Shown here piece after piece: positions 30,001 to 42,000 of a stretch of 64,000 bases of DNA (its first letter is position 1; each line of letters starts with the position of its first letter). Source of the DNA: Schmidtea polychroa (Eukaryota); the NCBI GenBank assembly GCA_044892525.1, contig CM097885.1:36210001-36274000 (forward strand), read 5' to 3'. The notes under the pieces were generated by a model that did not search any database, was not told the origin of the DNA, and worked only from the letters and a program-made list of their open reading frames with translations. A program made the position numbers and the translations under genes.

Positions 30001-33000
30001 TTCTCAAATTTCCCAAAAGAAAACCCTTCAGTAACCATACCACTATAAGGTTTTTTTTATTTCTTATAAATAAAGTTTGAAGTTTTATTTTATTGTTATT
30101 ATTATTTGTTTGGATTACAAAATTTCATTTACCTATCATTTTTACCTGTCAAAAATTGGAGTACCTCCAACCGAAAATCACTAATTCGGGATCAAACGAA
30201 TTAGTAAAAGAATTTTTCATGTGGCAATGCCGCCAGAAATAAGATGTATTCTCGCAGCCAGTAGCAATTCGGACGTAGAAACGCTAGCAGACATAGCAGA
30301 TAAAATCAATGAAGAAATTTATCCTACTATATGCAGCATACAGAATTACAACAAAAACAAAACTAATTACAACAACCAATCAACCAACAAAAACACCGAA
30401 CCAAATGAAACAACAAACCGACTAATAAACACTTTGATTAGCAAATTCGACGAAATAATTGTCGAAAACAAACAAATAAAAGCGGAACTAGCCGAAATAA
30501 AAGAGAAATACAACAGGCAAAATTTCAATTCAAACGAAAACAGAGACCTATTCAACAGAAACAATTTTAACACAGACCAATCAAAAAACCTTATAATTAT
30601 ATAACACTGCCAGCTCTAGCTTGGGATATAATGTTATATAATATATGGACAGTCCCAGGGACTTGGACGGAGTCCTCTCAGAGCTCTGGGACTGCGTTCA
30701 TAGAATTATTAACAGATCTTGACATGTTTAATATATTTAAACATAATATTAGAGGGGGTATTTCTTCTGTAATGGGGGATAGAGAAATAACTGTAAATAA
30801 TTCCTTAACCATTTGTAGAAAATTCTTTAAAGATACAGATGCAAACTATATACAAATAAAAACTCCAGAAGATTCTAAATTAATAACAGAAGGTTTAACC
30901 AATCCATTTGAAATATTTTATCCCGATGCAACTGCTCTATATGGAGGTGTAATGACTGAATATTTACCAATTGGAAATTTCACATGGGTTGATATCCCCA
31001 AGGGGACTTCGTCCGAAGAAAAAGATAAACTAGATGATCTTATAAAAGAAATCCTATTAACCCCTAAAGATTCAGATTTTGGATATGCTATAGAATGTGA
31101 TTATGAATATCCTGATAGAATAAAATCTAGAACTAGATTTCTTCCCCTTGCACCAATAAAAAGAAAGATAGATCCAGAAGAACTTTCACTTTGGCAAATC
31201 TTAAAAAATATACCAACAAATATAAAACTTCTTTGCGACCAAACAAATCGAGAATATTATCTTTCTCATTATAGACTCTTTCAATTTAATCTTTCTCATG
31301 GATTGTGTTTGAAGAAGATTCATTCTAATATAAAATTCAGACAAGCACCTTTTATGAAAAAGTTTATAGAAGGAAATATTAAGAAAAGAAATGAAGCAAA
31401 AAGAGCTGGAAATATCTATCTTGACGTGATATACAAACTTTTAAACAATGCAGTCTTCGGAAAGACAATGGAAAATGTCGATAAATACACCCGAGTAGAA
31501 CTCCTAACAAATACTCAAAAGGATTTTGTAAGATATAATAGAATGCTTGGGAAACCAACATTTAAAAATGCAGAAGTATTCTCAAAGAACCTAGTTGCAA
31601 TTGAAATAAAAAATAATGAAAAAACTTATAATAAACCAATCTTTATAGGCTTCTCTATTTTAGAACTTTCTAAACTGCAAATGTATGAGACCTATTATGA
31701 TGTTCTAGTGCCACACTATGGAGATCGAATATCCTTACATGCAATGGATACAGATAGTTTCTTTTTTAAAATATATGGTAAAGATGTGAAAAAAGAAATA
31801 GCTGAAAATCCTATACTTTCTAAACTAATAAATGCATCTGGAGAATTATTCACCTTTAAAGATGAAAAACCAAATACCCCAATATTAGATGGAGTATTTA
31901 TTAGACCTAAACAATATTCGCTTGAGGTGACAGAAAAACCGAAAACAGAAAAGCAAACAATTAAAATTATGTATAAAAACCCAATAACAAATGAAATGGA
32001 AGAAATAGATTATACATTTGAACGATCAATAATAACAAACACAAAAACCTTTAACGATAACAAATGTAAAGGGATACAAAAAGCAGTATCTAAAACAATT
32101 ACACATCAAGATTATAAAAATTGTCTAAATGAAAACCATCAAGATAAAATAGAAGGGATGCATCAACTTAAATCTGAGAAGCATAATATGTATACACAAG
32201 AATCAGCCAAGATATCTCTATCTAATTATGATGATAAAAGATTTATTCTAAGTGATTTAAAAACAACTCTTCCAATTGGAAATGATTTAATCCCAATAAT
32301 AAAAAATCTTGAAAAAATAAATGAATTTTATAACTTAAAGATTACTGATCTTGATATTTATAAAGTCGAGATAGTTTACCCAGAGGTCATTGATAACAAA
32401 CCTTTATATTCTCAAGTTAAAAATTCAATAGCTATAGAGAAAAAATGTTTCAACATAAATAATCCAACTGATGAAATGGAGTTTCCAACTGAAGAATTTA
32501 ATTATAATAAGATTCAGTTAAGTAGAATTCAGAATGGCTTTCAGTGAGATTCAATCATGACTGAATCTAACTTTTAAATATATAAAATGTCGACAATTAA
32601 TTTAAGATATTCAAAAGCTAAGGAACTTGTAGAAAAAACTAAAAAATTACATGATATTAATGATAAACAAGAAATTAAAATACAAGAAATAAAAAAAGAA
32701 TATTATTTAAAACTTAAAAATATAAAATTTTTTATTATAGTGTTTTTTATATTAATTATAATATCCATCCTTCTATTTTATTTTTATTTTTATTTATTCC
32801 CAAAGATGACATCCTCAAATAAAAAAATTATCTAACAGATTTTTGGGTACTTCGTATTGGTCTATGTAATATTTCCTCTATTTCCTTCAACATTTCTTCA
32901 TTCCGAGCAGCATTAGAACTATTTAATAATATATGTTTTCCATGCATAGATTCTATAAAACTTTTATCAACTAAATTAGCACTTTGGAATAAATATTCAT

Positions 33001-39000: not shown

Positions 39001-42000
39001 ATTCAAGTGTTGATAATTTTAATTTAGCTTTTGTATCCTTATCTCCATAGAACAATCTTTTATCACCTTCTACTCTATTACAGATGAATTCTATAAAAAC
39101 ATTATGAAGTACACGGTTATAGTTTTGAAGGAATCCAAACAAGTGTTTTAATTCAAAATAACCTTCAAATTTTTTAGATTTATAAAGTTCAGCTCTTTTA
39201 TGGTAACCATAATTTATATCTAAACCATCTTTATCTAAATCTCCTTTATTAACATCAGGAATCCAGCCTGTTAATTCACCATATTCATTTTTATAATCAC
39301 AACCAGTCAAAATAAAATTTAACATTGTAGAATATACTCCCGGATGCAAAACAGTTTCAATTTCTGATGATCCTAGTTTTAATCTCATGTTGGAGAATAA
39401 ATTTGGAAAGAAATTATTTTCTAGGGTTATATCTTTGTTTGCTTCAATTTCTAATTCAATTTTATAATATAATTTAGCATTACAAATATCTATTGGGTTT
39501 GATGTTTGAAGAGATTGAAAAACTATATCACCCCTACGATTTAAGTTTGCAATAGATCCTGAAGTTGGTGAGATTTTAAGTACATCATTTTTCTTGATTT
39601 CATGAGTAAATTCTTTATTATAATCAAGATTTAATTTATTTTTTTCTTGAATTTTAAGATTTATGTTATTCATTTTTATATATTAAAATTCAATATAAAA
39701 TTCAATATAAAATATTTATAATTACCAAACCTAGCAATTTACCAACCTAGCGATTTGCTATAAGTAGTGGATATAAGACCCACATGCATGCAACCCCACA
39801 TGGAGATTGTGAATTTCCATCTCTTCTCCTATTTTCTTTATGTTTATAGGGTTTAAAGCAGAAAACATATGGGTATTTGTGTTTAAAATAAAGGCTCTAA
39901 ATGAGTTAAAAGTGTAAAAATTTAAGGTCTTTTTACTATAAAATAAGAGATTGGAGGCCACTTTTCCAGAGGGGGCGTGTGCATGTGGGTCTTATATCCA
40001 CTACTGAATACAACCGAATGCCATTCGGTTTACGAAATGCCGCAGCAACATTCCAACGTTTCATGGATCGAACCCTGAAAAAAAACAAAAACACAATCGC
40101 ATATTTGGACGACATATTAATAGCCAGTCCAAATAAACAATCCCATCTAAAAGACATAGACGAAGTATTTAAAACACTAAATACAGCAAACCTCAAAATA
40201 AACACCCAAAAATGCGAATTTTTGAAAAAATAAATAAATTTCCTCGGGCACACATTAGATGAAAAAGGTACACAGCCTCTCGAGAAAAAAATCAGCTCAA
40301 TCCAACAATTCCAACTGCCAAATTCAAATAGAGAACTCAGACGATTTCTGGGAATGATAAACTTCTACCACTCCTATATACCAAATTGCAGTGAACCTTT
40401 AGCCCGCAAGCAAACGGAAAAATCGAACGACTACATAGGACACTTAAACAAAGCATTAGAATCAAAGCAAACGACAGAAATTGGCTCACTGAATTACCAA
40501 CGATTCCATTGGGGTTAAGAAACACACCCAACTCAATAGACAACGAAAGCCCCTCCTTCAAAGTTTTTGGCAGAGAATCAAACCTCCCATCACTCAAAAA
40601 GAAAACAGCAGATAACACAGAAACAAATAAACAAACAACTAACAATAACAACGGAAATATAGGAAAAAATCCAAAAGGAATCTTAAAAAGGAGACCGGAC
40701 TCCGAATTGGATGGAAAAACAGTGCTAACAACAGACCTCATTCTAATAAAAAAACCATTCACAAAAGATTTCGAGTCCAAATATGAAGCTCCATTCAAAC
40801 TCCTATCAATCAACAAAAACGTTGCCACAATAATCAAAAACCACAAAAAAATGAAAATAAACATTATTAATAACAGTAAACACAAAACTTTGGTGGGGGG
40901 GAACTATTTATAACACTGTATATAATAATTTTCATCACTTTTGTTATTTTATCAAAATGCTAACTCGTTTTGAATGCTCTCTTGATCTGTTTTTAATTAT
41001 TATTTTAATTATAATTTTATTATTTAATAGTTTTAATTAATAATTACAAATGAATCAAAATTCCAAAATTAATTTTATCAATTTTTTGAACAGACATTGT
41101 GTAGACATTTTATTCAAGAATGTAATTTTACCGGAAAATGTATTTTATTACATGCATTTGAAAATGATAATAGATTAATTTATTCGTGCGGAATAAGAAG
41201 AATTTCAATGATAATCCAAAAATAAATTGCTTAGAATTTCATATAATTTTATAAAAAAAATAATAAATCTAGCTTCATTTAATTAAAGAGATTTAGGCGA
41301 TTAGTAATTTGATTTAATATTTTCAATCAAGATGTACATATTATTCAATTTCAAGTCAGAGAAAAAAAAACTCAAAAAGAAATATTTTTATACTTAATTA
41401 ACATAATAATTTCTTGATTTGATTTTGATTATTTATTGGTTTGATTTTTCAGTAATTTTTAAATAAATAAGTAATTTTTTACAAACAATATTTCCATATT
41501 TCCATTACTAAAATCATTTATCATTTTTTTTATCGTTGCATTTTTAAATTTTATTTATACTCATCTATTTTAACTATAAATCCAGAGAGTGCCGAAAATT
41601 TATCTTAAATAGTAGAAATTTAAGTAAAGATAAATGAAATTCTACAATGTAAAAATTATTCTAATTGCATATTATTTTAACTCTAAATTTAAAATTTATT
41701 TACATTTAAATAAAATATTGTTTCATCGTATATAATATAATATATAAAATTTTAAATTATAATATATTAAATATATATATATATTAGGGTGGGTCGAATG
41801 TTAATAAATTTTGAGTTCAAGAAAGGAAACATGGTTAAAAAGTTGTATTTTGGTATAGAAAAATTGAATCAAACCATTTTACTTAGATTTATGGACATTT
41901 ACTGCTCCCAACTTTTCTCCGAAAATGCAGTTCAACATAAGTGTGAAAACAATGTAATTTGGCTAGTGTCGGAATGTGTTTTGCGCCTTTGTCCATATTT

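Follow-up and report, generated by a model that had tools for sequence, protein, structure and literature searches.

The stretch of DNA analysed here, hereafter the window, comprises 64,000 nucleotides of Schmidtea polychroa (NCBI GenBank assembly GCA_044892525.1, contig CM097885.1, positions 36,210,001 to 36,274,000 of the forward strand), and near its middle lies a defective copy of a Polinton (Maverick, 'adintovirus'). Very probably it is an inactivated member of an integrating Polinton family that encodes a capsid and is abundant in the same assembly (781 Mb, four very large contigs). Between 30597 and 40005 there are 13 ATG-initiated open reading frames (ORFs) of 79-638 amino acids (aa), two on the plus and eleven on the minus strand. 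The plus-strand pair, a fragment of the protein-primed DNA polymerase B (pPolB) and an 82-aa membrane protein, converges on the eleven minus-strand ORFs, as a preliminary description made from the letters alone had proposed. The right limit given there is exact (40005, ...ACTACT), while the left limit lies nearer 30585 when the window is aligned with sister copies, i.e., further members of the family. The copy itself is ordinary. Unexpected are the mirrored arms at the ends of the family, which hint at an unreported kind of end copying or repair.

Table 1. Features of the window, in window coordinates
Feature	Position	Strand	Basis or remark
Predicted exons of EFCAB6-like gene	ending 47339; 45253-45064; 22811-22620; starting 21035	-	
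Predicted intron of EFCAB6-like EF-hand gene, 22.3 kb	22812..45063	-	prediction
Gypsy gag fragment, left host element	30150..30580	+	
Defective Polinton/Maverick copy	30585..40005		blastn vs sister copies; lost: left terminal repeat + ~3 kb, internally ~2.5 kb
pPolB, C-terminal ~640 aa	30631..32547	+	PF03175 E 4e-8
82-aa protein, C-terminal membrane segment	32587..32835	+	minority-subfamily block
130-aa accessory protein	32828..33220	-	family search negative
214-aa accessory protein	33236..33880	-	weak winged helix-turn-helix and C2H2 matches below cut-off
209-aa protein with hydrophobic segment	33898..34527	-	present in all sisters spanning the region
Miniature inverted-repeat transposable element (MITE), 342 bp, in fibre-like gene	34779..35120		14-bp terminal inverted repeats, 8-bp target duplication
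Fibre-like coiled-coil protein, 5' part (264-aa ORF)	35095..35889	-	interrupted by MITE; remainder ~34536-34778
Penton / minor capsid protein, single jelly roll, 250 aa	35929..36681	-	fold match
Adenain-like maturation protease, 144 aa	36678..37112	-	nearest Peptidase_C5 clusters
Gene of unknown function, 280-285 aa in sisters	37121..37994	-	here 169 + 124 aa pieces
pX-like core protein region, front missing	38017..38523	-	two pieces (79 + 88 aa)
Capsid ORF, double jelly roll	38510..39673	-	Pfam DJR-like PF21738 E 1e-24
Internal-deletion junction, 8-bp overlap	38513..38520		removed capsid end, PLA2-integrase, ATPase
Right terminal inverted repeat, ~300 bp	39706..40005		
243-bp end unit	39763-40005		one arm (39971-40005) is the inverted copy of the other (39763-39797)
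Gypsy reverse transcriptase + integrase fragments, right host element	40006..40913	+	RVT_1 E 3e-17

The proposed identity as a Polinton or adintovirus holds, with a pPolB, a double-jelly-roll (DJR) capsid, a penton, an adenain-like protease and a pX-like protein all identified (Table 1). The polymerase scores 32.9 bits against PF03175 (Pfam cut-off 25.8) and is missing about 870 first residues of ~1,490; sister polymerases reach 1,492 aa and carry N-terminal zinc fingers with a weak endonuclease VII-like match, and no OTU domain was matched on them in Pfam. Both jelly rolls that had been proposed were recovered, the 387-aa ORF (430 aa in sisters) through its Pfam match and the 250-aa ORF through its fold. 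For the latter, 38 relatives were found among 304 candidates, with identities of up to 90%, and a model folded with 35 relatives (pLDDT 85.9) returned the mavirus penton as top match (E 2e-11), followed by the adenovirus penton base and the Sputnik penton. The 144-aa ORF has no direct Pfam match; its nearest clusters are those of Peptidase_C5 (score 0.97; Pfam share 11-62% of cluster members), and the order His-Asp-Gln-Cys can be read from its sequence, which we take to be that of an adenain-type protease. The 79-aa ORF gives a weak Adeno_PX match (E 0.005, below the curated cut-off). PHROG matches were obtained for two of the eleven proteins, including tail-fibre matches for the fibre-like protein of a sister (E 1.5e-5). 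No loci related to the capsid or pPolB were found in the viral contigs searched, and none related to the penton in metagenome contigs.

The copy is recent and partly deleted, as the preliminary description had it, and is in a poorer condition than the 'mostly intact' ORFs and 'nearly complete' virion module described there. Compared with the sisters, the 13 ORFs collapse to 11 genes, six of which look whole (82, 130, 214 and 209 aa, penton and protease) and five of which are truncated or split (pPolB, fibre-like, 280-aa gene, core gene and capsid). The 169- and 124-aa ORFs form a single ORF in both of the two sisters spanning the region, and the 79- and 88-aa ORFs are fragments of one longer core-protein frame, whose ATG in this copy was created by a deletion junction. 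A non-ATG start of the core gene was considered and rejected, an in-frame ATG being present in seven of eight stretches of the majority type (see subfamilies, below); the remaining stretch did not include the gene, and L024 and L028 have no in-frame ATG. The fibre-like ORF of 264 aa compares with 310-336 aa in sisters, and the MITE interrupting it, which is presumably hAT-like, is multicopy (all 40 scored matches have 91-100% identity). Because it has one end only and no full polymerase, integrase or ATPase, the copy cannot move by itself and is non-autonomous.

Integrase and ATPase are indeed absent from the window, for which the preliminary description had offered two reasons, namely that they were lost with the left arm or never carried by this lineage. 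Sister copies have both genes. These encode an integrase with a PLA2 domain fused in front (470-503 aa; PLA2 PF08398 E 5e-9, rve PF00665 E 2e-11) and an A32 ATPase (263 aa; Pox_A32 PF04665 E 2e-8), located between the capsid and core genes. In each of the nine sister loci L002-L010 the capsid is followed by an ORF of the integrase type, which is broken in two of them, and all 90 scored integrase matches are at 91-100% identity. Because the window can be aligned to sisters on either side of the junction, where 2.5-2.6 kb are missing, and because a 34-mer across it has a single genome match (control 0), we conclude that integrase and ATPase were lost through a private internal deletion of ~2.5 kb. 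A loose contig end likewise falls at 38513. We give almost no credence to a lineage lacking both genes or to their loss with the left arm: the absence of the two genes from the window would fit either, but the left arms of sisters (L016, L020, L021, L022, L023) consist of terminal repeat and pPolB only, the genes sit between capsid and core, the junction is unique, and the 6-bp target duplications of the family are the mark of integrase action. The PLA2-integrase fusion is not unique to this family, since it recurs in 20 of the best 150 integrase relatives; a description of it was not found in the passages of literature searched.

Read from the pPolB side, members of the family begin with a terminal repeat and pPolB. 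The opposite strand next holds the accessory genes, fibre-like protein, penton, protease, 280-aa gene and pX-like core, and these are followed by the ATPase (on the pPolB strand), the PLA2-integrase, the capsid and the terminal repeat. Paired ends are mostly 13-16 kb apart, and wider where other insertions intervene. A capsid 33-mer (≤2 mismatches) gave 1,919 genome matches (965 + 954; control 0), majority-type end units gave 1,340 exact matches, and in a capsid search the best 107 of 3,148 candidates, those which were scored, were all 98-100% identical and without stops. The terminal inverted repeats have AGT-type ends, in line with the (AGT)2 or (AG)3 ends of Polintons, and the repeat pairs of ten sisters are 262-333 bp long with 0-13 mismatches. 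A 6-bp target duplication was present in all ten testable end pairs (eleven were tried, one being without an end), two of which share flanks, leaving nine independent, and nine sister capsid genes have 0-15 differences in 1,290 bases. Because of these duplications, the near-identical repeats and the few capsid differences, the family is judged young and recently active. All defining Polinton features are present at family level, and the family is an additional Polinton of the kind already catalogued in flatworms at high copy. Planarian Polinton entries exist in Repbase.

Three further observations concern the arrangement of Polinton sequences in the assembly. Inverted duplications of large element parts, with pPolB in both directions, were seen in L017 and as paired opposite-strand capsid matches, as snap-back copying would give. 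Two insertions ~550 kb apart (L023/L039 and L040/L024) have identical flanks, and represent either a segmental duplication or an assembly duplicate. The window also contains a second, divergent pPolB, a decayed minus-strand fragment at 8940-9578 with 36% identity to the family polymerase.

Compared with the window, the capsid genes of nine loci differ at 14-22 silent vs 5-6 amino-acid-changing codons, and those of two loci chosen by their ends at 18:11 and 29:31; because of this excess of silent changes the capsid would have been needed during the expansion of the family. Against this reading stands that the nine loci are the best protein matches, a choice favouring silent changes. Alternatively, the family may have spread purely as an intracellular transposon, with the capsid genes as passengers and no particles made. 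The ~1,900 dispersed copies fit such amplification, tandem, inverted and duplicated arrangements are present, and particles are known from no evidence here; however, the surplus of silent over amino-acid changes, the open capsid frames in 107 of 107 matches (biased to the best) and the retention of penton, protease and ATPase lead us to regard passenger capsids as somewhat unlikely. Established Polinton biology suggests that the family would replicate by protein-primed pPolB synthesis, package with the ATPase and mature with the protease, with the PLA2 domain probably serving membrane passage.

Every terminal repeat of the family is a unit of ~245 bp, the first ~25 bp of which recur inverted inside it. 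In the right repeat of the window the inverted arms are 35 bp long and spaced by 173 nt, and the 243-nt end unit has a folding energy of -49.6 kcal/mol (z -9), a value reached by none of 200 shuffles. The 38 end units in fetched loci (the window's and 37 from sisters) all have lengths of 243-257 bp and can be assigned to three end types. While the spacers of these types are 55-59% alike, the inner arm still follows its own outer arm at 22-27 of 28 positions, and within the window's end type (28 units) 26 positions that differ from the arm of the window show the same change in either arm, against 3 disagreements. No flip/flop ends occur in the 38 units. Furthermore, no mirrored unit of 60-900 bp was seen in six stretches at other Polinton families or a foldback satellite, whose true ends were perhaps not captured. 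The idea of solo 245-bp end units moving alone was rejected, since none of six units (seven stretches) has its own 6-bp duplication and all run into the element.

These patterns suggest, with roughly even odds in our judgement, that each end renews its outer ~25 bp from the inner inverted arm, by copying or by correction, when the strand folds back. In the simplest such mechanism, a displaced single strand would fold its 3' end onto the inner arm, pPolB would trim and re-extend the folded end with the inner arm as template, and such templating would keep both arms identical. Against this it must be said that the mirrored units are related by descent and stand not for 28 events but for three end types and about five point-variant types of independent origin, and that the arms of L011 and L013 disagree at 4-6 of 28 positions. 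A possible alternative, to which we assign a minority of our confidence, is that the arms are kept by selection for two inverted protein-binding sites, or by occasional gene conversion, and not by fold-back copying at each replication. The integrase or the N-terminal zinc-finger/terminal-protein region of pPolB would be the candidate binder, and the end type tracks the pPolB N-terminal zinc-finger type in seven of the eight loci seen (L016, L018, L020-L023, L025 and L026, with L025 the exception); the absence of flip/flop orientation likewise gives no indication of parvovirus-style rolling-hairpin inversion. However, the single-base variants limited to 1-4 fetched units are mirrored too (the 26 vs 3 above), which would be hard to achieve by selection alone, and the start of pPolB adjoins the left repeat, so linkage would explain the association equally. 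The association may therefore reflect either linkage or protein-site co-evolution.

In its fullest form, fold-back copying would belong to a family of ~1,900 copies that maintains its capsid and is still inserting, the termini of which fold back on the inner arm ~245 nt away, where pPolB re-templates or self-primes the end locally and the endonuclease VII-like domain possibly resolves it. We put this composite forward as speculative and rather improbable as a whole. If true, an animal Polinton would combine protein-primed with hairpin-type replication of its ends, the family would occupy up to ~3-4% of the assembly (supposing that all ~1,900 copies are full length), and there would be a tractable host in which Polinton particles could be sought.

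The copy in the window belongs to a minority subfamily, which is marked by the block of 82-, 130- and 214-aa genes. A 34-mer from the 214-aa gene has 140 genome matches, ~7% of the capsid count; the block is absent in four of five left-arm stretches chosen by capsid match, the fifth (L018) skipping it too, and the majority form skips 32606-33838 (contigs of run X1). Relatives of the block, and of the 214-aa N-terminus in particular, were not found in the searches run, and it may be lineage-specific. Short, fast-evolving accessory genes are usual. An 'undescribed lineage with unusual accessory genes', as first proposed, is not shown by these data: the penton, the PLA2-integrase fusion, the fibre-like protein and the 209-aa protein, the last with look-alike clusters in viruses and molluscs (score 0.93, recognition below threshold), all have relatives or look-alikes. 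In the majority subfamily (L011-L014) there is one more ORF, of 89 aa, near the right end and ~500 bp past the start of the capsid; no family was found for it, and the window's subfamily does not have it.

The pPolB of the minority subfamily is 84% identical within its own subfamily and 60-65% against other subfamilies, while capsids are 97-98% identical across them, which suggests module exchange as described for nematode Polintons. The same mosaic could be produced if the copy in the window were an assembly chimera of several family members, given a highly repetitive family, a capsid 98% alike to the majority subfamily with a pPolB at 65% (aa), and a different end type. We consider this very improbable, since the combination of end type, accessory block and pPolB type recurs in sisters elsewhere (L021-L023, L027), which makes the mosaic a real subfamily, and contigs of an independent-looking run (possibly of the source sample) agree at every base with the single-copy flanks.

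On either side of the copy lie parts of a Gypsy retrotransposon (Table 1). Homology to gag stops at 30580 and the reverse transcriptase (RT) begins at 40006, abutting the Polinton end, whereas in five Gypsy sisters these points are ~1.19 kb apart, and the Polinton copy appears to be nested in the Gypsy element. In the history that we favour, a family member would have been integrated by its retrovirus-type integrase into the Gypsy RT gene, itself in an intron of the EFCAB6-like gene. A later deletion would have extended over ~1.2 kb of Gypsy and the left repeat into pPolB, which lost ~3 kb, and a second one (8-bp overlap) would have taken the ~2.5 kb including integrase and ATPase; the MITE would have entered the fibre-like gene, and two genes would have been split. 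Several points weigh against this account. The gag side (30150-30580) is closest to one Gypsy subfamily, at 96%, and the RT side (40006-40405) to another, at 95% (96/90% vs 80/95%), so that two distinct Gypsy copies may meet at the left junction. In addition, the target duplication of the copy itself is uncheckable, the left end being lost, and the family is known here from sequence alone. As a separate observation, the host Gypsy retroelement is itself possibly mosaic.

The placement inside a host intron proposed in the preliminary description stands as a prediction: minus-strand EF-hand exons flank the element on both sides with GT-AG ends and agreeing phases, and a flanking exon has EFCAB6 as its best PDB match (E 1e-4). 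The immediate host is, however, the Gypsy element, and the predicted exon 22811-22620 has no homology support. A search for relatives with a host exon was negative, and no RNA splice joint across the element was seen, where joints of up to 20 kb were covered and the predicted intron is longer. The surroundings, which had been described as otherwise decayed, are not so throughout: at ~41787-44936 lies a young multicopy element, with minus-strand ORFs of 390, 110 and 235 aa and no Pfam family worth naming at E 0.1, which presumably resembles a DNA transposase; a 3,164-base contig from a run guessed to be RNA spans its whole length. The segments 6846-7277, 51564-52001 and 49924-51320 are presumably a hAT-dimerisation-like ORF and decayed Gypsy pol fragments, judging from their translations. 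Three runs guessed to be RNA have contigs on the Polinton family with a few poly-A/T loose ends; these may be DNA and are not assignable to a copy, and no claim is made from them. As for the assembly in general, L056 (G000:C433) carries a stop-free cox1 with 38% GC content that is readable in the bacterial code, which marks a bacterial contig (symbiont or contaminant), and at least 14 identical mitochondrial cox1 contigs are also present. The mitochondrial cox1 reads TGA as Trp (5 of 6 aligned positions) and has ATA opposite Met at 0 of 10, in agreement with the flatworm/echinoderm or cnidarian codes and, taken with the AT richness, with a host of planarian type.

While the copy itself is of little weight, the family bears on two open questions. 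The first is whether animal Polintons make virions, for which a very young, abundant family with a conserved capsid is material in which to look. The second is how Polinton ends replicate and are restored after excision, for which the mirrored arms provide a concrete, testable model, with more than 1,300 ends in the assembly available for checking it.

Among known systems, the adintoviruses share with this family, in the passages of Starrett et al. 2021 (PMC8502044), the pPolB, rve integrase, FtsK/A32 ATPase, adenain, hexon-like and penton-like capsids, pX-like and PLA2 domains, AGT-type ends and 6-bp duplications. Their PLA2X is a gene with a C-terminal pX domain, whereas here the integrase itself carries the PLA2 domain at its front. 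In the same passages a PLA2X accessory gene characterises the Alpha class and GasderminX/cupiennin the Beta class; no ORF scanned here has a Pfam match to gasdermin, and PLA2 points to an Alpha-type virion module, while the weak PF03175 match points to a divergent polymerase. The supplement text of that study, in the possibly partial form searched, has no entry for Schmidtea, Dugesia, Girardia, planaria or Platyhelminthes.

In 8 of 73 Platyhelminthes genomes, Jeong et al. 2023 (PMC10748475) counted 748 pPolB1 copies linked to an integrase, some of them 1,500 aa in length; the 1,919 capsid matches of one family here exceed this number for a whole phylum, although the methods differ. Passages of bioRxiv 10.1101/2023.08.22.554363 describe nuclease domains within pPolB as well as the exchange of pPolB among Polintons that are alike in other respects, the latter being seen here between subfamilies too. 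The vertebrate Mavericks resemble the family, in the parts of PMC8097293 consulted, in their two-module layout, (AGT)2 ends, 6-bp duplications and mostly defective copies, and number per genome a mean of 22, a median of 8 and a maximum of 287, compared with ~1,900 here. Planarian Polintons are abundant, silenced by SMEDWI-2 and piRNA targets according to passages of PMC8532177, and Mavericks are expanded in Dugesia (excerpts of bioRxiv 10.64898/2025.12.11.693146); gene content, capsids and end structure, which those passages do not describe, are given here.

Spaced mirrored arms in animal Polinton ends, and the genes of this family, were not found in the literature searched, a result which does not establish their absence from print. 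The nearest precedent found is that of the endogenous virophages and Polinton-like viruses of Halocafeteria, for which self-complementary extreme ends within the terminal repeats are described, and hairpin priming proposed, in passages of bioRxiv 10.64898/2026.07.28.741278. According to the same passages, that palindrome is contiguous, 52 nt long and found mostly in elements without pPolB. In contrast, the arms here are ~25 bp long and ~190 nt apart, they belong to a pPolB-encoding animal Polinton, and their variants are mirrored.

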